From assembly GCA_015231405.1 (NCBI GenBank), contig JADGBR010000004.1, positions 189-64,188 on the forward strand: 64,000 nt of DNA. The letters run 5' to 3'. The notes under the pieces are model-generated. The model saw only the letters and a program-made list of their open reading frames with translations, did not search any database and was not told the origin of the DNA. This DNA comes from Candidatus Omnitrophota bacterium. Its GTDB lineage: Bacteria > Omnitrophota > Gorgyraeia > Tantalellales > Tantalellaceae. This document shows positions 358-43,356 of the stretch, in pieces; position 1 is the stretch's first letter, and each line of letters starts with the position of its first letter. The position numbers and the translations under genes are program-made.

Positions 358-747
358 TTACCTCTTTTGCTCCGTTTTATCCGTAAACATAACTTTTGTC
401 TGGTTTCTGGCCAGATAGAAAATAATAAACGCTGATACAGCCAGTCTGAATATGGCTCCTGATAATTCTATCGAATTGAATTGGCCTCTTGCGACAAAGA
501 TCTGGGAAAAGAGGTTTTCAGCGATCGCCAGAGAAAAGATTATGACCGACAGGATCCGCGCCCAGTTCTTGAGCTTAAAAAGGCCTGTGCCTATAACCAG
601 ATATAGCATACCTGCTGCCGTAAAAACAAAAACGAATATTGGATGGACTGACTTGGACATTGAGTAAGTGAAGCCGGCTAAAAGAGCGAAGAGACCTATT
701 AAATAGTGCAGGGCTGCAATTGCAATAAGCATTTTAGATTTCTTCAT
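358..747 (-). CDS. hypothetical polytopic membrane protein (about 4 TM helices)
   Basis: 129-aa ORF with four hydrophobic segments, beginning LIAIAALHYLIGLFALLAGF. It sits 16 nt downstream of the 86-aa ORF on the same strand. Confidence 0.45.
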   Translation of the reverse strand: MKKSKMLIAIAALHYLIGLFALLAGFTYSMSKSVHPIFVFVFTAAGMLYLVIGTGLFKLKNWARILSVIIFSLAIAENLFSQIFVARGQFNSIELSGAIFRLAVSAFIIFYLARNQTKVMFTDKTEQKR

Positions 748-763
748 AAAACACCATTTGAAA

Positions 764-1024
764 TTATTTTTCCCGCAGCCATTTCTTCACCTGTTCACAA
801 TTATCTATAAATGGGCCTCCCCAGGCCGCTGAGGCTTCATTCAACATGGATATAACCCGTTTTTCTCCACCCGGCTCATTAATTGTTTCGACAATGGACT
901 TCCCTTTTAATGCCGGTATTTTTCTACTTACCCGATCTTCATAATAAGCATTGTCTTTACCCGGATATAATTGTTTGAAATGTTCCCTGATACTCGCTGG
1001 AAGATCTTCAAAGTGTTCTATCAT
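764..1024 (-). CDS. hypothetical 86-aa soluble protein; candidate immunity protein for the C-terminal domain of the giant protein
   Basis: Its start overlaps the giant-gene stop by 4 nt (ATGA), implying translational coupling. It is small, acidic and soluble, and lies immediately 3' of a PT-TG-like/C-terminal domain, which is the usual toxin-immunity gene order. It has no recognisable motif, so the call rests on context only. Confidence 0.35.
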   Translation of the reverse strand: MIEHFEDLPASIREHFKQLYPGKDNAYYEDRVSRKIPALKGKSIVETINEPGGEKRVISMLNEASAAWGGPFIDNCEQVKKWLREK

Positions 1025-4000
1025 GTTATTTCCTCCGCGCCTTTTTCAAATAAGTGTATAACCAGCCCCGGGATGTCATCAACACCCTCAAACCGTGCTG
1101 ATGGAGCAATAATGCCATTATAACCCCCGTAATAGGCAAAGTCACCTATTAACCGAGTTATGGTTGTATTTTCCTGTATTAAATCACTATTTTTTATCCC
1201 CAGTTTCGTAAGTATCATCGGATCTGTTAAATCAAGCATATTATTTACCATGACATTTTTCACACCAAAGGCAGTTTCCATAAAATCCCTATCTAAATGC
1301 GCTAGTTCACGCAAAGTTGTTGTTGAATTAGCCCCTGCGGATATAGTACCAATCCCAAATGGAGCATATCGATTTACACCTGAAAATTTATCGTATGTGG
1401 TCACCCGCCATATGTCATTCTTATATTGCTTTGGAACACCTCGAACAATCCTCCCGTCATAAACTACCCCTCCTGGTAAGTCATTTGCAATACCCAGCTG
1501 ATCTAATTTCCAGGCAACTGTACTCGCATCTGATAATTCATCCGAATGAACAAGCGCTTTTTCTGCATAATTAACAACCTTCGTTTCATGGACACCTTTC
1601 ATGAAATCTAAAATGTCATCAGATTTAGTTAATAATGATTTCCCACCATGCCTAACAAGTGCAGACCCCACACATGGCATCATTAGACATGTGCCGGAAA
1701 CAGCTCTTTCAAGCGGGGTAAGAGTTTCTCCGGTAATTATATCTTTACCGAACATCACCTGTATGCCATCGTGGAGCTCACCAACTACCGGCATGAACCC
1801 GGCCGCGATACTTGCGCCTATTTTCCATAACGGTATTCCCTGCACAGCGGGATCTGTTTTGTCGATCATACCGTCAATATCTTTCCCGGACAGGACAACC
1901 CGGATTTTTCCCGACGCGCATGACCCTTCCGCGCCGGCTTGTACATCGATGTAGGAACTCGTCAAGTTTGAACTTTCTCCGTCCGCGAATGCGAGAAGAC
2001 CGTCGTCGTCTTCATCGATAACTGAACCCATCGACATCCTATAACTGTAATTCCCATCGGGTCCGATGGCTGTGTATGTATTTCCGTTCAGGACATCATC
2101 TATCTCCGCGTCGAGATAATTTCTATACGAATCATAGTATAAAGAGCCTCCTTCTTCATTGGGTCTGACCCAGCATAGCGTTTCGCCTGTTATGGTGTCT
2201 ATAATTCTCGCTCCGGACTGTACTCCTCCGTTTATATCAAGCGTTATTCCTAGTCCCGGGATATAGCTACCATCAAGATATCCGTTCAAAAGAGCCATCT
2301 TGCCGTTACCGTCCACACCGATCTCGCCGAAAAGAAGAGTTTCTCCCTCTTTAAGTCCGATTATGTTGCCTTCCGAGTCGAAGAGCAGGATGCTATCGGT
2401 ATTTTCTGCCCTGATTCCATCGACAGTTGTGTCATCTTTGAGTGTGACCTGTTCTTTCTGGCCGGCTTGCCATTTATCGTAGAAATACCGGCCTATGGTC
2501 TTTCCGGAACTCGCTATGGCGTTTACGGCGGTCGTATTGAAGAAGCCGGTGGCATAGGCATTGAGGGCTTCGACTATACCCCTTTCTTTCACGACATCGG
2601 AGAATGTCATGACCGAATCCATGTACGCTATCCTGCCGATAGTGTAGGCAGGTTCGTCAGAGCTTATATTTCCTCCGAAAAAGGCGATGGCATTCGATCT
2701 ATAGCTTTCATACATGAATTTGAATATATCAAAATCTTCATCCCCGCTGAACATTCCACGTAATGTTCCATTGATCGCCGTAGATATCGCTGAGAAGCCG
2801 ATATTGGCAAGCATCGGGTTAATATCAAGCTGGTCGATCGCGTAATCTATCCCGATCTTTGCCACACCCTGCACCAAGCCATCCTGCACCGCCTGCCACA
2901 TATTCTCAGGGTCCTGGCCGTCTGAAAAGCCCACGTTCAGCATATCCCTTACTGCTATCCCTGCAAGATTCGATAGTTCCGCAGGTAGTCCTATAGTTTC
3001 TCCCATCCTGAGTATCCCGTAGTAGCTGATCTCTTCTGCCGCGTATGGGACTATCGTTGAGCCTATTTCTTGTGAAAGAAGATCGTATGCTTTTGACAGA
3101 CTTCCGTCCGGGCCTGACATGCCCGTCAGGAACGCCCCGCCCATGCAGGCCGCACCCGTAGACATCATGTCGGAGAGAAACGGGTCTAGTCCGGTTTCTC
3201 TTCCTACCAGGCTCACGCCGGTTTTTATCGTGCTGGTCAATGCGCCGGTTAGGAAGTCGCTTCCGCCCGAGTAGCCGCCGGTCATGAAGGAGGCGGTAAT
3301 CCTTGAGATGTCATTGTTTACGCCGAGTGTGTCCATAGCATTCGTGATGGCGTAGTTGTAGGTGAACATTTTTATGCCGTCGAGGAGGGTTTTGCCAAAA
3401 TCGCCGAAGAAGGTCATTATGGCGTGAGTGCCGCCCTCGACTAGTTTGCCTAATGCGGTAAATACGCCCCCTACTCCCTGTGTAACGGTCTGTAATCCGC
3501 TGAAAAACCCTCCTATTATATTCGGGAGGTTCGCTATGATACTCGCGGCGCTGAAGACCAGAGTTACTATTCCAAGGATCTTACTTACCAGCTGGCAGAT
3601 GCTGTTGTCTATGAAACTCAAAGCTACCGATATGGCGCTTAGCCAGTAGAATATGGCGGGGAGGGCGAAGAGGAAATTGCCTTTTACAAGAAGTGATTCG
3701 TTAGTGGTGAGTTCGCGGAACGAGTTCGGGGCTTGGTTTGGGTTCGCGGGCGGGGCTCTGTCAGCTAACACATAACCGGTCCAGTTCATGAGGAAGGTTT
3801 TCTCGTCGAGTGTTATGCTTTCGCCGGCTGTGTTTTTGTTCGGTTCATAATAGGTGACGTCCCCATTTTCGGCGATGTCGGTGACAATGACGTAGTGGTT
3901 GCTCGAGAGGTGGACTATAATGTCTCTACCCTCATCTTTGACCAGCCATTTAAGCCCGGCGATATCCGTCTTCGCCGCCTTAAATTCGGCACTCTGTCCC

Positions 4001-7000
4001 CTGTCCTCTCGCCTCTCGCCTCTTAACCAGTTATCCAAATATCTATCCATCGCGAACAATGAAATACTGAGCGTACCTTCGGTAAAAGTATCGATCGACC
4101 CCATGAATACCTCTATAAGGAGAATATCCCGGGCTATATTTTTCATGGCCTGGGTTCTTTCCGCCGGGGTTGCGAATACGGCTCCGTTATTTTCCATAAG
4201 TTTAAGCACCGTCTCGAACGCGCATCGGCCAAGGTTTATCTGGTTAGTCTTCAGCCAGTCGATGATCATGGCGGCGTCCTTACTGCCCCAGCCGGTATTG
4301 TTATGCGCGGTTACCTCCGTTTCCGTGAGGCCCAGGGCCGTAAGAATAGCGGCTCGGCCGGCCTGTGCCGCATCCGGGTCAGTATAACTATTCAAAACGG
4401 TCTCGACATCGGTTATGACCGAGTTATTAAAAGCGACTTTGTCCGTATATTCAGGAAGGCTTTTTAGTTCGCTTTCTAGATCGATCACGTCGAGGAAAGC
4501 TACCCTAAGCACCGGGTTAGCGCATCCGGCGCTCTTTGCCATCGTTATCCAATACGACATCTCATCCGTCCCCCCGTTCGCCGACGTCTCGCCGGGGTTA
4601 CGGCCGAGGATCTTCAAGTAATAAATATTAATTATCTGCCTCACTTCCTGTTCCAGTATATTCCTCTCGGCTGTTTCCTCCTGGGCCCGGACGGCGGCGA
4701 TAGTGGTCGAGTATTCGCTCATTATCATCCCATGGGCATTCGATATGTCGCCGGGGACTTTCATGTACTCGTCGTTTATGTACCGGACAGCCTCGTTCTT
4801 GCTGTCTTTAACATTCTGTATCTGGACCTCGATCTCGTTCCTCATGCTGTTCTTCTTTTTCTTATCGGACGGCCAGAATGGGTTCCAGCTGTTTATTGCC
4901 TGGAGCTGGGCGTATAACTGGTTAAGAGCGTTATCGCATTCGTTTATTATCTGAACTTTCTGATCGTTCAGATAATAGATCGCCGAATCTTTGGCTTTAG
5001 CAAGATCCAGGAGAGCCTGGTCTTTCCTCGACTCGATATCGAGCTTCGTCTTTTCCAGCTCGAAACGGGTGCTTCTACGCATCCCGTCATAATCTATATC
5101 GACGATGTTCTGGTCTTCGTCGTAGCTGTACCTGACGACCGGGTTCCAGTCGGTATCGGTCACTTCTACAAGCAGCCCTCTCGCGTCGTAATGCTCGACG
5201 CGGTTATCTCCTTTATACACGTATTCCAGCCGGCCGAACTTGTCATAGACGCTTTTCATGACCCAGCTCGTATCCTTGAAATAGTTTGGTAGATGTTCTT
5301 TCGCGAGCGTGACCTCGGAGGCAAGGGCCTCTTCAAAACCGAGGTTATAGTTATTCCTCTTCGCGTAATCGGCAAGTGTGCTCATATCCACAAGGCGTTT
5401 AGCGGGTTTCGAGTTAAATACGTTCGGGTTTGTCTCGTTCCGGAAATATATCTTATCCTTGAACGATATGCCCGAATCCGCTCCGCATGAGAATTTGAGG
5501 CCTATATTGACTATCCTTGTCGGGTCGAAACCTTCCGACGTAACGCCCCCCGGTATTTCGCCATAACCCGGTTTCAATGTGACCTCGAACCATTCACCTT
5601 CTCTTGTAATATTTACATAATTCCCGTATTCGTAATTATAGTTCTCGTCTTTCACGAATACCTGCGCCCAGCTTGAATGGATTCCGTCGCCTATAAAACC
5701 GGCCGGGGCTTTAACCCTGAATTTTAGTTCTTTATCAAGCAGGTCCAGCGGCCCTTCGTAAACATATCCGCTGCCGGCAAGGTCGTAACGCAGGTCTATA
5801 TATACTTCGCCGTCATTGTTCGTCTCGCTGCCGGCCGCCATATCGGCGTTGAGCGCCCAGGCGTCGAGAGTGTTATCCAGCGTAACGGCTTTTATCCCCT
5901 GTGAATATTCGATATTCTGGGCGCGCCACGAGCCGTCCTCAAGCACCAGCGGTTTATTCACTACCTCACCCGGTTCCTGCCGGGCCGGGACATTATCCCA
6001 CATCCTGAAATTCGGGTTACCCACCGAAGAGCCATCCCATATTATCCCCACATAAGGTTTAACGGAGTCTTCCGGGACGAGGAAAGGAGCGCTCACATAA
6101 CTACCCCCGGGACATGTACCGTAGTTAGCGTCGACTATGGATATACCCCCGTTATAGTTGAAAGTGCGGTCATAGTCGTCGCGAAGGCGTACGCCTATAA
6201 GCCTCACTTGTTTCGGATCGAAATTAGCGCTTTTTATCCCGAATAATGGTTTATCGTCCGATACGACAAGCTCGACCTTGTACCACCCGTTGTCGTTCGT
6301 GATCGTCACTTCGGTACCGTATAAGTCCCCCCAAACACCGCTGTCCTCGGATTTGGCGAAGATCTGCGCGGTGACGCTTTTACCCGGGGGAAGGGTCCCT
6401 TCGTCGAGTTTTATATAGAAACTGGCCTTCTTGCCGCTAAGGTCGCGGGTGCCCTGGTCGAACGAGTTCGGCTCCGGGTACCGGAGATCGACATAAGCTT
6501 CACGCCAGTCCCTGGACAAAAGATCCGCGTTTATATGCATTGTTTCGGCTGAGCCCCGATAATTATCGCCGGAACCCGGATCCGGATCCCGCCATTGGTT
6601 GCCGCCTCCGGTCAGCCTTTCACCTATCTTTTCCTGTTCGCCTGTTCTGTAAAGGTCGTCTTCACCGGGGATAGCGATATCCATGAATTTAACGAGCTTA
6701 TAGTTCGCGTATATACCGGCAAGGCTGCCGCTTTTGTAGAATAGCCGCGTGCCGTCGTTCGCGGTGACGTTTACCCAATCCCCGTCGATGACTGAGGCTC
6801 TTTGTGCACCGTCAGCCATAACTACCGTGAACTTTTTCAGTCTCGGTAGGCCGTTATTGTCCTCTATCATGCCTATATCCTCGAGGACAACGCCGTTAGG
6901 GCATGTTACATAGTCGACGGCACCTTCCTTATAGTAGACCACGCGCCCGTCATCGTGATGTTCTTCCGCGAGTTCCGCTATCATGCTGCCGTCCGCGTTG

Positions 7001-10000
7001 TATAGGTAGCGGTATGCCCGGCCTTTACCGTCATAAAAGTGAGTGAGCTTGTTATTTGTGTCGAATTCCCTGACCGTGCCGGTATTGTCCGCTAGTGTGA
7101 TCTTCGCGCCGTACGTGTAAGTGAATACGTTCATTCCCTTATCGCCGCGTTTCTGGGTTATCACGCTGATCTTTTGTTCGCCGCCGATCGTTGTGTACTC
7201 GTAATCTGTCTCGAGACCGAGCTCATTCACCTGATAGATAATATTATCATCGCGGTAATGCCTTTCAATTTTGGCGATGGTATCCGTTACGACGACCGTT
7301 TCCGTCCCGTTTGCGTCTTTAACATATTTATAGGTATAGAGCCGCCCGTCGGGGTACCTGGCGCTAATGATCTTATTATCGTCGTCGAGCACATACGCGA
7401 CACCTTCCCCGTCCCTTATCTCGGATAATTTCGTGCCGCTATAGATGTACTCGACGTCTTTCGGATCCTTTATGCTGGTTATATCCCCGGAAGTGCCAAA
7501 ATTGACGACGGTATCATCGGAAGTGATAAGTTTTATTAGAGCCCCGTTTTCGTTATAGATACGGGCTATATCGTCGCGATCGATCTCGAATTTGGCGCGC
7601 GACTCTTGATCCGACGGGTCCAGCGTAATGATCGCCGACAGGGTATTGCTGTCAGTAACGGTTATATTCCCTTCTGAGATATTGATGGTCTCCCCGGCGC
7701 TATTGGTCACCACCGTTATTTCCCCGCCCGGGCCGTAAATAACGCTAACTGGAACCGCGTCGTCGGTTGTTACTCCCGTTAGCGTCGACCTGTTACCCGC
7801 CGGATCGTACGCGTACCTATATTCAACGCCGTTACGGTTCACCCTCAAAATATGCCCGTTCTCGAATTCCGTGTATTCCCCGTTCGGACCGGAGAAAGAA
7901 ACGGGGATACCCGAAGCGTCATAGATACTCGTCCATTCTTCGCCCGTTATCCGCGTTCGTTTTAGCTCTCCCCGGGCGTCCCTGTACAAACTGTACAGAT
8001 TTAAACCAGTCCGGGGTGAATATTCAGCGGAGATGTCGTTACCCCTCGATATCTTTATCGTCCCGTCTCGGGCTATAAGCTCCATAAGTTCCCCGTTGTA
8101 TACGACTCCTATGCCGCCGTCAGGATAACTCACAAGAGCTCTATCGAGTTTGCCCTCCCCGGAAAGGACTATACCGCTTAACCGCGATCCGTTTTCCTTG
8201 AGTATCACCGAATCGAGATCCCCGTTTTTATAACGGATAATATCACCGTTATCGTTCGTTATCGACACAAGACCCTCGCTAACCGGAGGCACGATACCGT
8301 CAACTGCAGGATCCCATACATATATGCTTTTCCCTGACGGGTCGAATACCTCGATATGCCCGTCTTTACATAGATCGCGGTAAGAGATAAGCGCGCCGTT
8401 CGGATCCCTCGAATATTCACGGTAATTGCCGGACGCGTCCAGGCTCCTCGTTAGAGTGCCTGTCACAGAGTCATATTCGTTAAAACCTGAAATTTCTCCG
8501 GTTTTATAGTTTTTCTCAGCCCTCGTTATAATAACATCACCCGATCCGTTCTCCCCGTAACCTAACTCGAATGTCGTGCTTTTATCGCTTATCTTCCCCG
8601 TATCCTCCCACGACGCGCCGATGACCGTGCCGTTAATGCCGTTCACCCGGTCTATAATGCCGGTACCGGTGCCTTCGTCCATGTCCCATGCGGATACGAG
8701 GGACGCTGACGCGCCGGCCCCGCTCGACAATTTTACGTTCTTTATCGCGCCCGCGAGGCTCGCTGTGCCAACCTGGCGGTAGCCGAAGAACATGTCACCG
8801 TCGAAATCCAGGCCTTTACATGCTCCGGCGGGATAGGTCTTACTTATGACTTCACTGCCGTCGACATACACTGTGACTGTTGCGCCATCATACCTCATTT
8901 CGAGGCTATACCATTTGTCGAGCTGGTCGAGGCTTCCGACGCTCCCGGAAACGTCGTCCCCAAACTCGCCGCCGGGCATGCTTATATACACCCGTCCTGC
9001 CCCGCTCTTCCATATCTCGAGCCTGTCGGAATTACTGAGCCGTTTAGTGAATACCGGCACCCAGTTACCCTGGGAGCCGGATGAGAATTTAACGTCCATT
9101 GATATCGTAAAAGCGCCGAGGCTGTGGAGGGCCGAAGACTGTACGGTCACGCCGTCGCCGGTGCCGTCCAGTGCGAGGACGCTTTCACGTTTTATCTCGT
9201 CTACCTTGACAACTCTTCCAGGTCCGTTCCCGGCAGTGTTATCATCATAATGGAATATTATTGTATTACCTATATTAGGCTCGCCTGCGAGATCCTCCGC
9301 TTGGGCGGTTATTCCATCAGGGATATTCTTACTGAATTCTTTTCGCGAGAGGTTACCGCTATCCTCATAATATGTTTCTTTGTATACCAAATCCCCAGCG
9401 GGATGATCTTTCTTTGTCTTCGAAAATAGTTTTGACGCGCCCTCAGCCGTCTCGCCGTAATACTCGAATTCGTATGTTACGCTTTTTTCCGTTATATCGT
9501 CCGTGTTTTCCCATACGGGGCCGATCACCGAGCCGTTATTGGTCCCGACCCTGTCGGTAACACTCCAGCCGCTACCTTCGTTCATGTCCCACGCGGATAC
9601 CAGCCCGGCCGTTATATCCACGCCGGAATTAATGGCCATGACCTCGCCCGTCGTTATCATCCTGTCAAAGAGCCTTACATCCCTAATACTCCCGGGGAGC
9701 GACGAGTTATCAAATTTACGGTAGCCGAGGAACATCTCAGCGCTAAAATCCATGCCTAGGGAGTCCCAGCTCTGGGTTATGACCTCTATCCCGTCCACGT
9801 AAACTTTTATGGTATTCCCGTCATACCCCAGGGCTATGTTGTACCACCTGTTAACTCCCGCCAGGCTGTACCCGATCTCCTTTTTGTCCAGGCCGCCGTT
9901 ACTACCGGGGAAACTTATATAGACCTGTCCTACCCCGTTCTTCCATATCTCGAACCTCTCGTCGACGCTTGTACCCCGTTTCGTGAGTATCGGTACCCAC

Positions 10001-11493
10001 TTGCCGGAGGCGCCGTCGCCGATATTTACGTCCAGCGATATCGTGAATGTTTTAAGATCGTGGCTTGGATCAACGCCGAGGCTTACTCCGTCCATATAGC
10101 CGTCGAATTTGAGAAGCGTTATAGGATCCTCTACCTCGATCCTTTTGATATTCCCGTCACCCGTTCCCGCGGGGTTGTCATCGTAATGTATTATTATGTT
10201 CTTACCTTGGATATCCTCACCGACCATAGCTATAACCACTCCGGCAAGGTCCGGCGTCAGATCTCTGTAATACTCACGCTTCATGATCTTGCCGCTACCT
10301 GAGTAGAAAGCCTCTTTGTAAATCGGTTTACCGTCCGAAAGGCGCGCAATCGTCTTTATCAGGATCTTATCGTTCTCCGGGTCGTTCGGATCCGCGTATA
10401 CTATCGCATGCCGCTCGCTTTCGGGTCCGGGCAATGCCGATAGCGACCACGTCGGACCGGTTATCGTCCCGTCATTTCTTCCGATAGCGTCGTTTATCAC
10501 CGTTCCAGTCCCTTCATCCATTGCCCAATCCGATACTTTCCCTCCCGTAACATCGTTATCGTTACTAACGGCGTTCACTTCACCCGAAGATAGGGCGCGA
10601 TTATAAAGTTTAACGTCTTTAATATCACCCGCGAGCGTCGCGCTATCAACGGCCCGATAACCAAGGAACATCTCCGCGTCGAAATACATGCCGTCAGACA
10701 CCGCGCTCTTCGTTATTATCTCCACGCCGTCGAGATACGCCTTCAGTTCGCCGGCGGTATAAGTAACGGTAATGTTCCGCCAGACGCCTACGGTGTTCAG
10801 GCTGTAATCCGTACCGTTAAATGTCTCGCCTTCTATTCCCCCCGGGATAGTTACACTTAACCTGCCGTTATTTGTTTTCCAGATCTCGAACCTCGTCACC
10901 GCGGAACCGCTTCTTTTAGTGAGGAACGGCACCCACACACCGGACGACCCTTCATCGATCTTCACGTCCATCGATACCGTGAACTCACTCAGCTTATGCG
11001 TTGTATTATTCCCGAGGCTGACTTTGTTGCCGTTCGCCATGAAACCTAGCTCATACTCATCGTCAATGACATCGACCTGGCTCACCCTCCCCTCGCCGTC
11101 CCCGGCGTCTTCGTCAATATAGGTATATATGACGTGCTTACCCTTATATTCTCCTTCGGCGGGCTCATCGAAGACTTCTCTTGTCTTAAGCCTCCCGGAT
11201 CCGTAATGTGTGTCTTTGTCGGGGATAGTTAGCGCCATCATGAGGTTGGTAGTTTCTCCGGAGTCGGCCGCTTCGGCCGACTTGTTATTTCTTATAAGAT
11301 CTTCCGCCGCGTTCCGCGAATCGACCTTCGCCTGGTTAGCTAGACGGGCCGTTATCGACTCTGCGGAAATAATATTCGATCCGTGATCGGGATCCAATTT
11401 ATTAGCGACGCCAAGATCCCCCGCCAGGGCCACCTGTTCTAAAAAATAGATCACCGCGGTTAAAGCTGAAATGGTTTTGAATATGTATTCCAT
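1021..11493 (-). CDS. giant secreted multidomain protein (3,490 aa) with the architecture of a polymorphic toxin: signal peptide, 3 LamG-like modules, YD/RHS-type repeats, 2 CBM-like modules, coiled coil, DUF4214, C39-like peptidase domain, TM block, PT-TG-like motif, C-terminal ~230-aa domain
   Basis: Single uninterrupted ORF with an AGAGGTG Shine-Dalgarno 5 nt before the ATG.
- N-terminus MEYIFKTISALTAVIYFLEQVALA looks like a signal peptide.
- Three ~280-aa modules each carry a YDD/HYDDNxAGxGxG segment and a LamG-like segment (e.g. FTVSMDVKIDEGSSGVWVPFLTKR, FTISLDVNIGDGASGKWVPILTKR, FTISMDVKFSSGSQGNWVPVFTKR, each followed by EIWK...YVDGxEVI...MFLGYR).
- YD-repeat-like motifs (YRYAYDPAGNRS, YTYKYVKDANG, RAYRYLYNADGS) follow.
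- A DUF4214-like motif ILGRNPGETSANGGTDEMSYWI is encoded at ~4556-4640.
- C39 peptidase signatures are a Q/Cys region NQINLGRCAFETVLKLMENNG at ~4213-4270 and a His region NHYVIVTDIAENGDVTYYEP at ~3880-3918.
- Hydrophobic helices FLFALPAIFYWLSAISVALSFI and ILGIVTLVFSAASIIANLP lie at ~3540-3700.
- GKDIITGETL is encoded at ~1700-1750. Confidence 0.85.
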   Translation of the reverse strand: MEYIFKTISALTAVIYFLEQVALAGDLGVANKLDPDHGSNIISAESITARLANQAKVDSRNAAEDLIRNNKSAEAADSGETTNLMMALTIPDKDTHYGSGRLKTREVFDEPAEGEYKGKHVIYTYIDEDAGDGEGRVSQVDVIDDEYELGFMANGNKVSLGNNTTHKLSEFTVSMDVKIDEGSSGVWVPFLTKRSGSAVTRFEIWKTNNGRLSVTIPGGIEGETFNGTDYSLNTVGVWRNITVTYTAGELKAYLDGVEIITKSAVSDGMYFDAEMFLGYRAVDSATLAGDIKDVKLYNRALSSGEVNAVSNDNDVTGGKVSDWAMDEGTGTVINDAIGRNDGTITGPTWSLSALPGPESERHAIVYADPNDPENDKILIKTIARLSDGKPIYKEAFYSGSGKIMKREYYRDLTPDLAGVVIAMVGEDIQGKNIIIHYDDNPAGTGDGNIKRIEVEDPITLLKFDGYMDGVSLGVDPSHDLKTFTISLDVNIGDGASGKWVPILTKRGTSVDERFEIWKNGVGQVYISFPGSNGGLDKKEIGYSLAGVNRWYNIALGYDGNTIKVYVDGIEVITQSWDSLGMDFSAEMFLGYRKFDNSSLPGSIRDVRLFDRMITTGEVMAINSGVDITAGLVSAWDMNEGSGWSVTDRVGTNNGSVIGPVWENTDDITEKSVTYEFEYYGETAEGASKLFSKTKKDHPAGDLVYKETYYEDSGNLSRKEFSKNIPDGITAQAEDLAGEPNIGNTIIFHYDDNTAGNGPGRVVKVDEIKRESVLALDGTGDGVTVQSSALHSLGAFTISMDVKFSSGSQGNWVPVFTKRLSNSDRLEIWKSGAGRVYISMPGGEFGDDVSGSVGSLDQLDKWYSLEMRYDGATVTVYVDGSEVISKTYPAGACKGLDFDGDMFFGYRQVGTASLAGAIKNVKLSSGAGASASLVSAWDMDEGTGTGIIDRVNGINGTVIGASWEDTGKISDKSTTFELGYGENGSGDVIITRAEKNYKTGEISGFNEYDSVTGTLTRSLDASGNYREYSRDPNGALISYRDLCKDGHIEVFDPSGKSIYVWDPAVDGIVPPVSEGLVSITNDNGDIIRYKNGDLDSVILKENGSRLSGIVLSGEGKLDRALVSYPDGGIGVVYNGELMELIARDGTIKISRGNDISAEYSPRTGLNLYSLYRDARGELKRTRITGEEWTSIYDASGIPVSFSGPNGEYTEFENGHILRVNRNGVEYRYAYDPAGNRSTLTGVTTDDAVPVSVIYGPGGEITVVTNSAGETINISEGNITVTDSNTLSAIITLDPSDQESRAKFEIDRDDIARIYNENGALIKLITSDDTVVNFGTSGDITSIKDPKDVEYIYSGTKLSEIRDGEGVAYVLDDDNKIISARYPDGRLYTYKYVKDANGTETVVVTDTIAKIERHYRDDNIIYQVNELGLETDYEYTTIGGEQKISVITQKRGDKGMNVFTYTYGAKITLADNTGTVREFDTNNKLTHFYDGKGRAYRYLYNADGSMIAELAEEHHDDGRVVYYKEGAVDYVTCPNGVVLEDIGMIEDNNGLPRLKKFTVVMADGAQRASVIDGDWVNVTANDGTRLFYKSGSLAGIYANYKLVKFMDIAIPGEDDLYRTGEQEKIGERLTGGGNQWRDPDPGSGDNYRGSAETMHINADLLSRDWREAYVDLRYPEPNSFDQGTRDLSGKKASFYIKLDEGTLPPGKSVTAQIFAKSEDSGVWGDLYGTEVTITNDNGWYKVELVVSDDKPLFGIKSANFDPKQVRLIGVRLRDDYDRTFNYNGGISIVDANYGTCPGGSYVSAPFLVPEDSVKPYVGIIWDGSSVGNPNFRMWDNVPARQEPGEVVNKPLVLEDGSWRAQNIEYSQGIKAVTLDNTLDAWALNADMAAGSETNNDGEVYIDLRYDLAGSGYVYEGPLDLLDKELKFRVKAPAGFIGDGIHSSWAQVFVKDENYNYEYGNYVNITREGEWFEVTLKPGYGEIPGGVTSEGFDPTRIVNIGLKFSCGADSGISFKDKIYFRNETNPNVFNSKPAKRLVDMSTLADYAKRNNYNLGFEEALASEVTLAKEHLPNYFKDTSWVMKSVYDKFGRLEYVYKGDNRVEHYDARGLLVEVTDTDWNPVVRYSYDEDQNIVDIDYDGMRRSTRFELEKTKLDIESRKDQALLDLAKAKDSAIYYLNDQKVQIINECDNALNQLYAQLQAINSWNPFWPSDKKKKNSMRNEIEVQIQNVKDSKNEAVRYINDEYMKVPGDISNAHGMIMSEYSTTIAAVRAQEETAERNILEQEVRQIINIYYLKILGRNPGETSANGGTDEMSYWITMAKSAGCANPVLRVAFLDVIDLESELKSLPEYTDKVAFNNSVITDVETVLNSYTDPDAAQAGRAAILTALGLTETEVTAHNNTGWGSKDAAMIIDWLKTNQINLGRCAFETVLKLMENNGAVFATPAERTQAMKNIARDILLIEVFMGSIDTFTEGTLSISLFAMDRYLDNWLRGERREDRGQSAEFKAAKTDIAGLKWLVKDEGRDIIVHLSSNHYVIVTDIAENGDVTYYEPNKNTAGESITLDEKTFLMNWTGYVLADRAPPANPNQAPNSFRELTTNESLLVKGNFLFALPAIFYWLSAISVALSFIDNSICQLVSKILGIVTLVFSAASIIANLPNIIGGFFSGLQTVTQGVGGVFTALGKLVEGGTHAIMTFFGDFGKTLLDGIKMFTYNYAITNAMDTLGVNNDISRITASFMTGGYSGGSDFLTGALTSTIKTGVSLVGRETGLDPFLSDMMSTGAACMGGAFLTGMSGPDGSLSKAYDLLSQEIGSTIVPYAAEEISYYGILRMGETIGLPAELSNLAGIAVRDMLNVGFSDGQDPENMWQAVQDGLVQGVAKIGIDYAIDQLDINPMLANIGFSAISTAINGTLRGMFSGDEDFDIFKFMYESYRSNAIAFFGGNISSDEPAYTIGRIAYMDSVMTFSDVVKERGIVEALNAYATGFFNTTAVNAIASSGKTIGRYFYDKWQAGQKEQVTLKDDTTVDGIRAENTDSILLFDSEGNIIGLKEGETLLFGEIGVDGNGKMALLNGYLDGSYIPGLGITLDINGGVQSGARIIDTITGETLCWVRPNEEGGSLYYDSYRNYLDAEIDDVLNGNTYTAIGPDGNYSYRMSMGSVIDEDDDGLLAFADGESSNLTSSYIDVQAGAEGSCASGKIRVVLSGKDIDGMIDKTDPAVQGIPLWKIGASIAAGFMPVVGELHDGIQVMFGKDIITGETLTPLERAVSGTCLMMPCVGSALVRHGGKSLLTKSDDILDFMKGVHETKVVNYAEKALVHSDELSDASTVAWKLDQLGIANDLPGGVVYDGRIVRGVPKQYKNDIWRVTTYDKFSGVNRYAPFGIGTISAGANSTTTLRELAHLDRDFMETAFGVKNVMVNNMLDLTDPMILTKLGIKNSDLIQENTTITRLIGDFAYYGGYNGIIAPSARFEGVDDIPGLVIHLFEKGAEEIT

Positions 11494-11699
11494 GTCACAC
11501 CTCTCTTATTTGGTTTACCAGTGATCTGTTTTCATTTTTTTTACCTTCCTTACGTTCAGGCATTGCTTTCTATACTTCTAATTTCTAATACATTATAACA
11601 CTTTAAGTGATACATGTCTTCGGTAAAACTGCCTACTTTTTTATCTCTAATTGTGATTTTTATGCTTAGGAACAGAGGTTTGGCGAGGGGTATTACTCA

Positions 11700-13119
11700 T
11701 TATTTCAGATATTCTTCACGAACATATTCGTTCCACATCGACTCGAACACTGGGAGGGAGAGGTAGAATTCCTCGTCCACTATGTTGGCTATGTGTTCGC
11801 GTCCTTTCATCCTTTCCAGGATCTTCCGAACGGACGACCAGCCCCATCTTTCGGTTATGAAAGCTACGGCGGTATAAGCGCCTTCATAACTTAGGCCAAC
11901 GAGACCAAGGTCCTCCATCTGGGCGAACCCTTTTTCAAGCAGCGCCACGCTGAGCTTGCCGCCCGAATCGGAAAAAGCTTTTACATGCCCCGGAGGGTAG
12001 GGCGCGTACACTTTCTGCTCGAACACGGCCATGGCTTCATTGAACCATGGCGGGCAATTATTGTCGGTCATATAGGAAACAACGGCATGCGTATACTCAT
12101 GCGCGATGACGGCTTTGAACATCGGATCGTTGATATCGGGAATGAATACCATCTTGATGCCGCTACCGTCATAGAAACCCCGGACTATGCCTTTCTGGTC
12201 GAATACTGTCCGGAAATCATCCTCGGTGTAGAACGTTATGGAAGTCCCTTTGGGAAGATAAATGCCGAGATCATTACCCACACGCTTGTATATATCAACA
12301 AGTAAAGAGCTCAAAACATCCTTGTCTATATCGTATTCCTTGAACAGACCAACCTTGAAATAGCCCATCTCGATCTCGTCCATCTTATCTCTCATCGCGA
12401 GTTCTCTAGTGACCTTTTCAAACTCGGATCTTGCGTCGGTATCGTCCGGGGCGGCATGAACGGCCTTCTCCCAATAGAACCTGGCCTTTTCAAGGTCGGA
12501 CTCCTTGTAAAAATGGTACGCCAGCATTTTTATTGTCTCCACCCTCGGCCACAGCGAGTAGGAGATGTTCGCGAAAATGTACACCGTGCGCGGGTCGTTC
12601 TTCGCGTACGCTTCTGCGGCCTTGTTAAACAGGTATATCGACACGTTCTTCCTGGCCTTCTTAGACCGCATAGCTATATCCACGGCTTTTTTCACCCTGT
12701 TCATGGCGAGGACATAATCCTTGTCTTTCGCGAGCCGGGCCGCTTTAGAGATGAGGAGTATCGCGAGGTCGTTCATTACGAGAAGGTCCTTGGGGTCGAG
12801 TGACGACGCTTTCAGAAGGCACTCGATAGCCGCGTCGAGGTCCCCGCTGTCGTTCATTCCCCGGGAGCACTTCACATATTCCTGAAGAAGGACCTTCCTC
12901 ACATTCTCGCCCGACGGCGCCTCCTTAAAAGCTTTAGCTAACACCTGCATGGCGTCTTTGTATTTCTTCGCTTCTATCTGCGCCTCGACCTTGCGGATAT
13001 ACTCGTAGATGCCGATCTCATGCCTGAACCCGTAATGATAGAACGCCCAGCTGAGGATGATGATCACCACCATCGACACGATGAAAATATTTATATTCTC
13101 TTGATATGAATCGCTCATC
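11700..13119 (-). CDS. TPR-repeat protein with C-terminal HExxH zinc-metallopeptidase-like domain (peptidase MA-like), N-terminal TM anchor
   Basis: I chose the start MSDSYQENINIFIVSMVVIIILSWAFYHYG (ATG at 13117-13119, with a GGGGG stretch 8 nt upstream). The longer 11700..13361 ORF in the track would overlap the upstream radical SAM gene by 240 nt across a GC-rich stretch. The protein has a TM helix, then TPR-like helical repeats, then HEYTHAVVSY (HExxH) with downstream FNEAMAVF. Confidence 0.55.
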
Positions 13120-13123
13120 CTAT

Positions 13124-14254
13124 CTACCCCCGCCCCCTGCCTGCCTTGCCGGCAGGCAGGCTCCCTGCACCATGCGCCATGCCTCTTATCTTCCCCTCTA
13201 CCAACTGCCGAACGAACCTGAACTCCGGCCACCATCCCCCACCCACGAACTTCCGCACCTTCGGGAACACGGCGCACTTGAGGCACGGCGAGGCCGGGTC
13301 CGGCTCGATACGCCCCATTAAGACCTGTTTCATACGGACATACTTCTTCCCTTTCACGCACTCGCGAAGCCCGGACTCGAACACATTACCCAGATCCCCC
13401 CACTCGTTCAGACAGCAGCCCAGAAGTTTACCGTCCCAGTTTATCATCGGGGAGAACCAGAGCTGATAACAGGGGAATTTATACATGCTCGAGGTCTTTC
13501 CCTCATACTCCTCGCGGGAGGCATACCCTATCTCTTTCCTGACAAATTCCTTATTTTTAACGGGCGAATATTCCGGGTGGGCGTTCAGCTTAGGCCGGAA
13601 ACTCATGCCAAGGGTTCGGGCCATTTCCCTGGCGAGCGGGATATCATGTTCATTATGCCCATAAACTATGAATTGCCATGTAAGAGCCGGATACTCCGAT
13701 CCGTATTTTTTCTTAAACTCGTTAATTTTCCTGATATTCCCGATGACTTTATCAAAATCGCCGTTCACACGGTATATCTTATACGTGGCCGCGCTTGCCC
13801 CGTCCAAAGAAACATACATCGACCTGAAACGGTACTTGACCAGGGCCTCCAGCATCTCATCCGAAACGGTATTAAGGTTAACCCCGTTCTCTGCCGTAAG
13901 GATCACCCCTTTTTCAAAAGCGTACCGGATGATCTCCAAAAGCTCGGGATTTAGGAATATCTCCCCGTAATTCGACAGCTCTATCCGCTTGAACCCCGGG
14001 AACCTTTCCACAAACCCTTTAAAATCCTTGAACTTCAGGTACCCCTTCCCGATAACCCCCATATCCCCAACCCCTTGAGGACACTCCGGGCACCTGAGCT
14101 GGCAAACAGAAGACGCCTCCAGGCGTACCTTATCCCCCAGCACGCCGTACCTGATATAATTGCTTATAATCGAACTGATCCTCATTATCTTAATATCCCG
14201 GCCTATTCTCCTGGTATATTGTGTAATTTTACCCGCACTTATGGGTGTTGTCAC
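13124..14254 (-). CDS. radical SAM protein with C-terminal SPASM/twitch-like Cys cluster (first of four paralogues)
   Basis: CQLRCPEC (CxxxCxxC) lies near the N-terminus. The C-terminal Cys-rich region reads FPCYQLW...LLGCCLNEWGDLGNVF...PCLKCAVF. It is a paralogue of the ORFs at 26638, 44401 and 48044. The true start may be the internal Met (MRISSIIS, near 14185). Confidence 0.7.
   Translation of the reverse strand: MTTPISAGKITQYTRRIGRDIKIMRISSIISNYIRYGVLGDKVRLEASSVCQLRCPECPQGVGDMGVIGKGYLKFKDFKGFVERFPGFKRIELSNYGEIFLNPELLEIIRYAFEKGVILTAENGVNLNTVSDEMLEALVKYRFRSMYVSLDGASAATYKIYRVNGDFDKVIGNIRKINEFKKKYGSEYPALTWQFIVYGHNEHDIPLAREMARTLGMSFRPKLNAHPEYSPVKNKEFVRKEIGYASREEYEGKTSSMYKFPCYQLWFSPMINWDGKLLGCCLNEWGDLGNVFESGLRECVKGKKYVRMKQVLMGRIEPDPASPCLKCAVFPKVRKFVGGGWWPEFRFVRQLVEGKIRGMAHGAGSLPAGKAGRGRG
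13136..13160. repeat. perfect GC-rich hairpin (10-bp arms CCTGCCTGCC / GGCAGGCAGG, 5-nt loop) at the radical SAM / TPR-peptidase gene junction
   Basis: Read directly from the sequence: cctgcctgcc ttgcc ggcaggcagg. It lies within a locally GC-rich stretch (13120-13340). Confidence 0.85.
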
Positions 14255-41988: not shown

Positions 41989-43356
41989 TTAGTCACCAGA
42001 CAACGCCTCCCAATACCCGCCTTTATCAGGGCCAACCCTCTTAATACGTCCCGAATACTTTAACTTCCTCAGATTCCACTCGACTCCGCGGCGCGTAAGA
42101 CCTGTCTTATCCATGATACGCTTTTGTGTGATACGTGGATCATCCTTAATAAGATCGAATATTATCTCCACAGTTTTCTCCACAGTTTTCTCCACAGCCT
42201 TATTTATTCCTATTCCCGGTCCCGCGTCATCTTCCCATTTTGGACGGTAGAAAACCACGACAAAGCCCGTCTTAAGGCGTTTGAACTCTACCTTGATCCC
42301 GGCAGAGACACATTCATCATGGATACGTTTTATACCGCTCCCCCAACGCTCTATATCCTTGGATTTATACATCGTTTCGGCGATCAAAGGATTGCGTAAG
42401 ATTGAATGTTCATTACCGAAAAAGAAATCCTCCGGATCGATCTCATCCGGAAAAAGACCGGGATTATAGATCTCAATACGGTCCCTGAAGATCGCCACCT
42501 CATTCCCCTTAGGGTTGGAATAATCCCGATGGCACAAAGAATTCCCGATAGCTTCACGGACAGCCTCAACAGGGATCTCAGGAATTTCCTTGCGTGGCCC
42601 TGTTTTTATTTCAGCCCGCCACTTCATATTCCCGTTAACGTAGACCTCGGCTTGCTGACGCAAACTAAAGAGATTCCCTTTGAACGATTTGATATCCAAA
42701 AACGTTACTTTGTCTGTCCCGGCAAAGATCGCGGCCTGAACTTCCAGTGTATTGTCGTCACAAAATAAAGTTTCAGCAGCATGCAACAAACGATTCCCAT
42801 TCAACAAATGCAATTTATGCAATGTCGTTTTTACATCAACGAAATCGAAATCTACACGCTTGGCCGTCTTTGCTTTACGCATAAACTCCTTAACGGCTTC
42901 TTCGTTAACATCGTTAATCGTCTTTTCGGATATCTCCCTCTCCCAAAGCAACTTCTTCTTGCCTAAAAAGAGCTTCTCGATCTCGCGAACGCTCAAAGCC
43001 TTATCCGACTCACCGACACGAATATATGCCCTGCCGTATGCAAAATACGGGTTATCGGTGCCATGGGCCTCGACCACGACGCACTCTTTGCCATCAATAT
43101 TACGATGGTCGACCTTAGGGAAAACCCTTGGCTCTGTATTATCGACGACCGCCTGCGTTACGTCCTTGATCGTATTGCGCCCGACCATCTGCCCCAGGAC
43201 CGTGCCATCGTCCGCGATCCCAAAATATACCTCCGCCCGTCCGCGCTTATTAAGCATCGCAACGACAGATATAACCGCTTCTTTAAGTTCCGAGGTCGAT
43301 TTTTTAAATTCTATTGTTTCCGATTCTTTAAAGATCATTATATTCGTCTCCAGCAA
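41989..43356 (-). CDS. AlbA_2 (Schlafen-like) domain + ATPase-like + C-terminal wHTH transcriptional regulator (COG2865-type)
   Basis: N-terminal ESETIEFKKSTSELKEAVISVVAMLNKRGRAEVYFGIADDGTVLG is the AlbA_2 signature. C-terminal HTH ITQKRIMDKTGLTRRGVEWNLRKLKYSGRIKRVG. Confidence 0.7.
   Translation of the reverse strand: MLETNIMIFKESETIEFKKSTSELKEAVISVVAMLNKRGRAEVYFGIADDGTVLGQMVGRNTIKDVTQAVVDNTEPRVFPKVDHRNIDGKECVVVEAHGTDNPYFAYGRAYIRVGESDKALSVREIEKLFLGKKKLLWEREISEKTINDVNEEAVKEFMRKAKTAKRVDFDFVDVKTTLHKLHLLNGNRLLHAAETLFCDDNTLEVQAAIFAGTDKVTFLDIKSFKGNLFSLRQQAEVYVNGNMKWRAEIKTGPRKEIPEIPVEAVREAIGNSLCHRDYSNPKGNEVAIFRDRIEIYNPGLFPDEIDPEDFFFGNEHSILRNPLIAETMYKSKDIERWGSGIKRIHDECVSAGIKVEFKRLKTGFVVVFYRPKWEDDAGPGIGINKAVEKTVEKTVEIIFDLIKDDPRITQKRIMDKTGLTRRGVEWNLRKLKYSGRIKRVGPDKGGYWEALSGD
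42165..42198. repeat. in-frame 12-nt tandem repeat (TCTCCACAGTTT, ~2.8 copies) inside the regulator CDS
   Basis: tctccacagttt tctccacagttt tctccacagc, which encodes VEKTVEKTVE on the minus strand. Confidence 0.8.

Follow-up and report, generated by a model that had tools for sequence, protein, structure and literature searches.

A giant Omnitrophota protein predicted to combine a self-cleaving C39-like domain with an exchangeable RES toxin cassette

Zhang et al. 2012 (PMC3482391) already counted RES among the domains of polymorphic toxins and noted its pairing with antitoxins of the DUF2384 type, and RES toxins act as NAD+ phosphorylases or deplete NAD(P)+ (PMC6436930, PMC11535050). The leaders recognised by C39 peptidases end in Gly-Gly, Gly-Ala or Gly-Ser and follow the consensus Leu(-12)-X3-Glu(-8)-Leu(-7), with the leader residues -4, -7 and -12 packing into a groove of the protease (PMC6363468). 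C39 is not among the processing proteases of Sec-dependent polymorphic toxins, in which C39-like domains are listed as toxin domains (Tox-PL-C39; PMC3482391), and StbD-CT, a CdiA-like C39 toxin, cleaves itself in cis after an adjacent Gly-Gly, a step needed for intoxication (bioRxiv 10.64898/2026.05.07.723447). Here we analyse a 64,000-nucleotide (nt) stretch of a Candidatus Omnitrophota genome (assembly GCA_015231405.1, contig JADGBR010000004.1, positions 189 to 64,188), hereafter called the window, which carries a gene for a protein of 3,490 amino acids (aa) containing both a C39-like domain and a RES tail, followed by an open reading frame (ORF) of 86 aa. We interpret the giant protein as a Sec-exported modular polymorphic toxin that cleaves itself by its C39-like domain and carries a RES payload, and assign this reading a probability of roughly 55%.

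The locus shares with polymorphic toxins of the RHS/PT-TG/RES type (PMC3482391; e.g. the protein P0126 and the locus L010) a putative signal peptide, YD repeats, PT-TG and RES domains, the adjacent small immunity gene and the exchange of cassettes. In contrast to these, it has neither the Rhs core nor the DPxGL autoprotease, and more than 1,000 aa separate its YD repeats from the toxin downstream. The interval is filled by the C39-like peptidase domain, a leader-like motif, transmembrane (TM) helices and a conserved region of ~530 aa, none of which belongs to the catalogued template of Sec-pathway toxins (Zhang et al. 2012, PMC3482391). As a unit of polymorphic toxins the cassette is of a standard kind, which does not hold for the scaffold.

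Compared to the PCAT/AMS exporters (ComA, LahT, PCAT1), the C39 domain of the window protein is unfused to ABC transmembrane and ATPase domains, neither ABC_membrane nor ABC_tran being found by Pfam in the giant protein. Enzyme and putative substrate form a single polypeptide, in which the 'leader' comes after the protease, and 92% of the family have Ser as the nucleophile. StbD-CT is a direct precedent for auto-processing in cis by the C39 domain of a delivered toxin. In StbD, however, the C39 domain is itself the toxin, is C-terminal, has its own immunity protein and is cleaved on its N-terminal side, whereas the C39-like domain of the giant is a conserved internal domain lacking an immunity partner, has its candidate site on the C-terminal side and is accompanied by a separate RES payload. 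With MbcT-MbcA, NatT-NatR and ParT-ParS the locus has in common the Arg, Glu and Ser residues of the RES domain and a putative partner related to the MbcA/ParS toxin-binding domain. It differs from these RES-Xre systems in that RES forms the end module of an exported 3,490-aa protein instead of a cytoplasmic protein of ~180 aa, that no HTH/Xre domain is found by Pfam in the 86-aa protein and that the gene of the latter lies downstream of the toxin. Giant Omnitrophota proteins of at least 10,000 aa, long proteins with signal peptide, TM segments and PF03412 from the same phylum as the window giant, were suggested to be cleaved by their PF03412 domains into smaller polypeptides (West-Roberts et al. 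2023; Nielsen & Lui 2026); neither a cleavage motif, a Ser nucleophile, polymorphic tails nor toxin-immunity cassettes were described in these studies, and the word 'polymorphic' appears in neither of the two. The leader-like motif and the RES identity of the toxin are new here.

The probable toxin cassette and its immunity gene

The giant protein is encoded by a single unbroken ORF with an ATG start at 1021..11493 on the minus strand, as are all features of the protein given below. The ATG of the 86-aa ORF (764..1024, minus strand) overlaps the TGA of the giant gene as ATGA (...GAA ATA ACA TGA / ATG ATA GAA...), by which the two genes are translationally coupled. Both products are deposited as hypothetical proteins of a Candidatus Omnitrophota metagenome-assembled genome (MAG), MBF0215990.1 for the giant and MBF0215989.1 for the 86-aa protein, on a 130-kb contig. 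An original prediction made from the sequence alone had proposed a 10.5-kb gene for a giant secreted protein of polymorphic-toxin architecture. The uninterrupted frame confirms the gene, and the architecture is borne out by YD repeats, PT-TG, a C-terminal toxin that varies and the adjacent immunity gene, together with a signal-peptide-like N-terminus. In the whole protein Pfam identifies three Laminin_G_3 domains (E 2.4e-47), an RHS_repeat at aa 1212-1239 (28.2 bits, cutoff 22) and PT-TG at aa 3227-3279 (PF14449, 36.3 bits, cutoff 23.5), and NCBIfam identifies YD_repeat_2x TIGR01643 at aa 2102-2131 (31.5 bits, cutoff 15.8). Central RHS/YD repeats, which serve for presentation in polymorphic toxins, are thus present by both Pfam and NCBIfam, and the TG-type motif pointed out before, GKDIITGETL, starts at aa 3249 within PT-TG. 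The whole 3,490-aa protein gave no match to PDB sequences, and a PADLOC scan returned nothing meaningful.

The PT-TG pre-toxin domain (1639..1869, aa 3209-3285) opens the cassette, and the C-terminal ~155 aa (1024..1488, aa 3336-3490), left unassigned by the original prediction, are recognised as a RES domain through their homologues. The last 232 aa alone score 18.0 bits for RES in Pfam (cutoff 23.2, E 0.003) and give a weak PDB match to MbcT. An exhaustive HMMER search yielded five tail-only matches (P0073, P0103, P0126, P0140 and P0143), P0073 being the closest with 53% identity (E 9.5e-35), and all five match RES (PF08808) with 33.9-52.8 bits precisely at the part aligned to the window protein. 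P0126 consists of RHS repeats, PT-TG and RES, P0103 of Peptidase_M48, PT-TG and RES. In the alignment of the six RES sequences R3375, E3396, S3465 and R3467 are invariant, and the tail profile matches MbcT (6FKG) with an E value of 1.9e-6. A single-sequence AlphaFold2 model of the tail was unusable (predicted local distance difference test, pLDDT, of 33). These data identify the last ~280 aa as a putative PT-TG plus RES-domain toxin cassette, and we regard the identity of the toxin-immunity cassette as highly probable. By analogy to MbcT and NatT the RES tail is predicted to degrade NAD(P)+; another RES toxin, ParT, ADP-ribosylates a target.

Scanning genome contigs with the tail profile retrieved, apart from weak partial matches in Firmicutes, an Omnitrophota protein with two PLD-like domains and RES (L002, 4450-6495 of the Candidatus Omnitrophota MAG contig JAQTPE010000053.1). 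This 681-aa protein has a RES domain 50% identical to that of the window, PT-TG is absent and no homologue of the 86-aa ORF was found downstream.

The homology of the giant protein to its own family (L001, P0005, P0006) stops at aa ~3119-3140, and the homology to other PT-TG plus RES toxins (P0103, P0126) starts at aa ~3209-3222. In between lies a linker unique to the window protein (1870..2073, aa 3141-3208), matched by no relative, with a host-like GC content at third codon positions (GC3) of 0.54. GC3 amounts to ~0.60 for aa 1-3208, falls to 0.34 in the cassette (PT-TG 0.38, RES 0.32) and is 0.36 in the immunity gene; the values for cassette and immunity gene are both under the minimum of the 46 other genes of the window (mean 0.52, standard deviation 0.057, minimum 0.43). 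This break coincides with the start of the homology to the RHS+PT-TG+RES and M48+PT-TG+RES toxins, suggesting that recombination joined the cassette to a conserved scaffold at the PT-TG boundary. The sharpness of the GC3 break at ~1,870 and the fact that the window tail is a singleton among the core-bearing proteins would also be expected from an assembly artefact, i.e. a MAG contig being chimeric near nt ~1,870 and fusing an unrelated toxin-antitoxin locus to the giant gene. This is extremely unlikely because the frame stays open for 282 codons, which open with the pre-toxin domain PT-TG, and because the unit of PT-TG, RES and immunity gene sits on other scaffolds in L010 and L011; also, the exact 3,490-aa protein is the one deposited on the 130-kb contig. 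PT-TG is defined as a domain that stands ahead of the toxin domains of long secreted proteins.

The 86-aa ORF has no direct Pfam match, including none to HTH domains, and the profile of its family finds no relative in the PDB. RES-tailed genes are immediately followed by its homologues in L011, in two tandem copies (blastp E 2e-13 and 2e-10), and in L012 (blastp E 2e-11), and in L013 a reading frame matching the ORF lies downstream of a RES-tailed gene, so that the ORF does recur at homologous loci as had been anticipated. No homologue was found in L001 or L014, whose giants carry other tails. PF09722 (Xre/MbcA/ParS toxin-binding) matches three of the six members of the 86-aa family, with a best E value of 5.6e-6. 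We therefore take the 86-aa protein to be the putative immunity partner of this toxin, related to the toxin-binding domain at the C-terminus of MbcA/ParS antitoxins but occurring on its own.

A 129-aa ORF for a small multi-TM protein follows at 358..747 (minus strand). It shows a weak DUF7144 match and resembles a 99-aa TM ORF (L010, 5484..5783; E 7e-6, 37% identity over 52 aa), which in that locus, of the RHS+PT-TG+RES type, comes after an ORF resembling immunity genes. The 129-aa ORF may thus belong to the cassette as a third gene, an assignment that is uncertain.

The C39-like domain and the leader-like motif

An exhaustive HMMER search with aa 2291-3490 retrieved 398 proteins with E values of at most 1e-3, of which 202 reach 1e-10 and 84 reach 1e-30. 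PF03412 matches all 23 sampled relatives, with a best E value of 3.5e-12. The best PDB match of the family profile is LahT150 (E 5.6e-5), the invariant His of the family being aligned to the catalytic His101, and StbD-CT is among the top structural matches of the domain, which in this family carries an extra helical insertion. The C39 region thus passes the profile and fold tests, and we are almost certain of the assignment to the papain-like C39 fold, nearest to the peptidase domains of ComA and the PCATs. The domain occupies aa 2396-2580 (3754..4308) and not aa 2150-2400, where it had been placed originally.

Among 77 members His2533 is invariant and the residue 17 positions past it is always acidic (Glu in 45, Asp in 32; Glu2550 in the window protein). 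Position 2424 is Ser in 71 members and Cys in the remaining six (the window protein, P0001, P0003, P0004, P0023 and P0082), and the position four residues before this nucleophile co-varies with it, being His with Ser and Asn with Cys. The window protein accordingly has the putative triad Cys2424/His2533/Glu2550. The expectation that the catalytic Cys and His would be conserved in homologues held for His and failed for Cys. The strict alternation of Ser and Cys speaks for retention of the nucleophile, even though papain-fold proteins with an inactive Ser are known, as are C39-like domains that do not cleave. The domain might be a non-catalytic latch or chaperone for the hydrophobic hairpin that follows it, binding the leader like the C39-like domain of HlyB and clamping the adjacent leader-like helix within its own chain, with any release taking place elsewhere, for instance at PT-TG by another protease. 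We consider this unlikely, since the nucleophile position is strictly Ser or Cys, where the HlyB domain has Tyr, the His is invariant and the acidic residue is present in 100% of the members, pointing to retained catalysis, and since the invariant Gly(-2) and the small residue at -1 of the motif described next are features of a scissile site and not of binding alone. As the domain is located after a putative signal peptide it is predicted to be extracytoplasmic; one may speculate that the Cys-to-Ser switch is linked to working outside the reducing cytoplasm.

Between the C39 fold and the first TM helix we identified a double-glycine-leader-like motif, LTTNESLLVKGN (3676..3711, aa 2595-2606), whose columns are conserved in 92 members. 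Numbering backwards from the residue preceding the hydrophobic segment, position -12 is Leu, Ile or Val in 90 of the 92, -11 is Ser, Thr or Asn in 86, -8 is Glu or Gln in 73 and -7 is mostly Ala (54/92), while -4 is Ile, Val or Leu in all 92, -3 is Arg or Lys in 83, -2 is Gly without exception and -1 is always a small residue (Ser 46, Ala 41, Asn 5). This register agrees with the published consensus of C39 substrates. A regular expression of the motif matches at the junction in 69 of 93 proteins and elsewhere in two, both of which are fragments starting at that junction; the window protein has one match only, and by chance about one match in 284,263 residues is expected. The spacer from the WxG at the end of the fold to Gly(-2) has a mode of 25 residues (range 23-41), and a hydrophobic segment (Kyte-Doolittle hydropathy above 1.6) follows within 30 aa of the motif in 92% of the members. 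Autocleavage at this motif, after Gly2605-Asn2606, is predicted from the sequence, and we rate it slightly better than even.

The hydrophobic TM helices (3451..3675, aa 2607-2681) begin immediately behind the motif. The two helices proposed originally between the peptidase and the C-terminal region were recovered as 19-aa segments at aa 2607-2625 and 2635-2653, the strongest of the region, with Kyte-Doolittle peaks of 2.03 and 2.16, and the family-mean hydropathy peaks at aa 2603-2681. Because the only conserved candidate site lies just before the TM helices, ~600 aa ahead of PT-TG and ~730 aa ahead of RES, cleavage would create an 884-aa fragment and not the toxin alone. Of the embedded C39-like 'release' peptidase proposed originally the fold stands and the place of release has to be corrected. 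The precedent given for it, that C39-like peptidases are catalogued among the releasing domains, was wrong, since Zhang et al. 2012 list C39-like domains as toxin domains. Release by an Rhs-type aspartyl autoprotease was considered and rejected, as the protein contains no DPxG[LWIMF] motif and no NCBIfam Rhs-core match was found at E<=0.1.

The listing of C39-like domains as toxins by Zhang et al., and the fact that StbD-CT, one of the top structural matches, is a C39 toxin with GyrB and ParE as targets cut at Gly-Gly, would be in accordance with a domain acting in trans, either as an effector protease in the role of Tox-PL-C39 or as a processor of other exported proteins, the motif being a pseudo-substrate or inhibitor. 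However, the domain is internal, ~900 aa away from the C-terminus and within the conserved core instead of the variable tail, no immunity gene is associated with it, and the motif is always found in cis at a constrained distance, which makes action in trans very unlikely compared to the self-cleavage we favour.

The TM helices are followed by a Gly-rich region with recurring G-L-D-P motifs (2524..3450, aa 2682-2990), a candidate membrane-insertion or translocation module. With the family profile the TM and early Gly-rich part (aa ~2620-2699, nt ~3397-3636) weakly matches FtbJ (E 6e-4), which is the tape-measure protein in monocin, a tail-like bacteriocin of Listeria. This match, the sole similarity found outside the family, could reflect spurious hydrophobic similarity or be a hint of a role in membrane insertion; as hydrophobic segments often match spuriously we keep it as no more than a lead.

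The scaffold, its variable ends and the gene neighbourhood

Many of the 398 relatives are 2,500-4,600 aa long, and all members with a named source are from Candidatus Omnitrophota and are labelled 'hypothetical' or 'cysteine peptidase family C39 domain-containing protein'. The statement that the assembly is not a described family thus stands insofar as the Omnitrophota papers contain no toxin interpretation, and does not stand insofar as there are 398 relatives, some of them named C39 by NCBI. The family became apparent by the exhaustive HMMER search. A word-indexed search was too insensitive, returning one match, P0001, for aa 2290-3490, none for the tail and four with a 17-sequence profile, and a scan of contigs with the core alignment gave no match.

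Mapping the window segments onto the best 150 of the 398 relatives shows a common order of YD repeats, sometimes the duplicated domain, YD repeat plus coiled coil, DUF4214-like segment, C39-like domain, TM/Gly-rich region, beta region and tail. The C39-like domain is found in 92, the TM/Gly-rich part in 126 and the beta region in 61 of these 150, the Gly-rich region being the segment matched most widely in the family.

The window protein starts with a signal-peptide-like N-terminus (11419..11493, aa 1-25), read from the sequence as ending in VALA followed by GD. In full-length members (N-termini of P0004-P0027) we observed a conserved hydrophobic N-terminus with the consensus ...IFLWQQVAWAG followed by D; this segment is conserved beyond what is usual for Sec signal peptides and might be a dedicated sorting signal. 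Export of the giant protein by Sec is inferred from the conserved N-terminal signal. Three tandem LamG/ConA-like modules of ~285 aa follow (8491..11145; aa 117-400, 429-712 and 735-1001; Pfam Laminin_G_3), mutually ~40% identical (E 1e-51 to 5e-70). This LamG region finds no match among the 150 best relatives and is probably variable and target-binding. Next are a divergent YD/RHS-repeat region (6814..8490, aa 1002-1560), matched by 41 of the 150 relatives, and a duplicated domain (5404..6813, aa 1561-2030) in which aa 1665-1770 repeat as aa 1896-2001 (E 8e-11) and which is conserved in 12 relatives and has no Pfam or PDB match. A YD repeat (TIGR01643) with a long coiled-coil-like helical region (4624..5403, aa 2031-2290) is matched by 53 relatives and aligns to P0001. 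The DUF4214-like segment (4309..4623, aa 2291-2395), matched by 35 relatives, leads to the C39-like domain, DUF4214 itself weakly matching in the relative P0022 (E 7e-4, below the cutoff). Behind the Gly-rich region a beta-rich region (2074..2523, aa 2991-3140) is the last part shared with the family.

P0001 is the 3' part of a 3,458-aa ORF in L001 that was shortened by the gene caller. The L001 giant shares aa 1251-2021 (45% identity) and aa 2113-3119 (36%) with the window protein and lacks the N-terminal 1,250 aa of the latter as well as its tail. The unmatched N-terminal LamG region and the varied tails indicate that both ends of the scaffold are variable. The 51 tails found past the beta region fall into 22 similarity clusters, in agreement with the tail variation foreseen by the original prediction, with the window tail as a singleton. 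Other tails that can be recognised belong to a Peptidase_C92 amidase type or a DUF676/DUF900 lipase-like type, and the biggest cluster, a conserved domain of ~300 aa, comprises 19 of the 51 tails and additionally the L001 tail. The family is thus polymorphic at the C-terminus, with one tail, the 'default' tail, prevailing. Neither Pfam nor the PDB yielded a relative of this default tail. It has an invariant Ser-Gly within G-F-x-H-S-G (P0001 aa ~1000-1363, P0054, P0006), and the guess from the HSG motif that it is a lipase is unsupported.

Downstream of giants with tails other than RES we observed proteins that combine TPR repeats with a TM segment at the N-terminus (L001 10745-11257, L014 13617-14246, L015 17161-18465), whose genes in L001 and L014, where the giants have the default tail, overlap the stop codon of the giant gene. 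Their mutual similarity is at best marginal, and they may be immunity proteins or accessory factors. A downstream TPR protein as universal accessory factor was rejected, as the versions of L001, L014 and L015 are at best marginally similar and no such protein follows in the window. In L001 a Gp49-family toxin/HTH antitoxin pair (11328-11999) comes shortly after the giant gene and its TPR partner. Genes for Y1 (IS200-like) transposases lie within ~1.5 kb downstream of two toxin loci (L010 5835-6620, L014 14467-15054), which fits mobile, recombining neighbourhoods.

The composition of the scaffold also bears on another reading, in which an Omnitrophota cell living as episymbiont or predator would use the protein mainly for surface adhesion or attachment to prey, the TM hairpin anchoring it in the producer membrane, the C39 cut shedding or maturing the large ectodomain and RES being a secondary add-on in this one lineage. 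The N-terminal LamG, YD and carbohydrate-binding-module-like modules, the commonest family tail being a conserved non-cassette domain followed by a TM+TPR protein, and the lack of delivery machinery encoded nearby are compatible with this, and in the Omnitrophota literature long proteins with TM segments are read as C39-processed factors of the cell surface or of predation. Nevertheless, a RES domain needs cytoplasmic NAD+ or cytoplasmic targets and here comes with a dedicated immunity gene, the tails are polymorphic, and the amidase and lipase-like types among them are typical effectors. We therefore judge the adhesin reading to be quite unlikely and retain the interpretation as a polymorphic toxin.

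The genes around the giant encode glycosyltransferases, radical-SAM enzymes and methyltransferases. Directly upstream lies an ORF with TPR and Peptidase_MA_2 (11700-13361, minus strand), which has no conserved upstream counterpart in L014 or L015. From its GTG start it overlaps a radical-SAM/SPASM ORF (13124-14254, minus strand) by ~240 nt, suggesting its true start to be probably further downstream. The ~40 kb from 21867 to 64000 are nearly all encoded on the minus strand with a strongly negative GC skew throughout, and contain B12-binding radical-SAM enzymes, GT2 glycosyltransferases, C-methyltransferases, a nucleotidyltransferase, an AMP-binding enzyme and an ABC exporter (58403-60220). This region looks like a large cluster for glycan or glycolipid modification. 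Its ABC exporter is the sole one of the window and lies 47 kb away from the giant gene. Inside the same cluster we found a protein with Schlafen AlbA_2, HATPase_c_4 and a winged HTH domain (41989-43356, minus strand).

Proposed mechanism and significance

Taken together, we propose that after export the variable N-terminal LamG/YD part would bind the surface of the target cell. The C39-like domain would cut its own chain after Gly2605-Asn2606, in a motif that follows the end of the fold at a distance of some 25-32 residues, using Cys2424, His2533 and Glu2550 in the window protein and Ser, His and Asp/Glu in most relatives. This would result in an N-terminal part of 2,606 aa and the 884-aa fragment comprising hairpin, Gly-rich region, beta region, PT-TG and RES. 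The fragment would begin with a hydrophobic hairpin, the Gly-rich module might aid in inserting into or crossing a membrane, RES would reach the cytoplasm of the target and collapse its NAD+ pool, and the 86-aa protein would protect the producer and its kin. This delivery model in its entirety is doubtful. Its weakest links are the peptidase activity, the fate of the hairpin in the membrane of either producer or target and the role of aa 2682-3140.

Several observations weigh against the toxin interpretation. All steps after export we infer. During Sec export the TM hairpin could come to lie in the inner membrane of the producer, leaving the C-terminal fragment anchored and not released, and no secretion or outer-membrane export machinery is encoded beside the giant gene. 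The window protein itself scores marginally, with 22.4 bits for C39 (cutoff 22; only the C-terminal, His-containing half being covered), 18 bits for RES (cutoff 23.2) and no match for the 86-aa protein, so that the assignments of C39, RES and immunity rest on the homologues. Its motif has Asn at -1 and Ser at -7, neither being documented as P1 or P7 of a C39 substrate. In our dataset the window protein is the only one to pair this scaffold with PT-TG, and ~40% of the family tails represent one conserved domain that diverges about as fast as the core, making the family only partly cassette-like.

Overall the original interpretation is partly supported; all three of its refutation tests were carried out, and none of them overturned it. 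Going beyond it, we tentatively suggest, at less than even odds, a new class of Omnitrophota toxins in which an extracytoplasmic C39 domain, mostly with a Ser nucleophile, would cut a leader in cis and thereby free a delivery module with interchangeable tails.

Omnitrophota are uncultured, ultra-small bacteria thought to be episymbionts or predators. The locus offers a testable candidate weapon, NAD+ depletion by RES together with its antidote, on a scaffold conserved in hundreds of metagenomic proteins. If our interpretation is true, this would represent a new solution of autoprocessing and translocation and a new release mechanism for polymorphic toxins, as well as the first serine-nucleophile branch of the C39 family and thereby a Cys-to-Ser switch in papain-fold peptidases. 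It would moreover provide an annotation rule for the 'C39 domain-containing' and 'hypothetical' giants of Omnitrophota.

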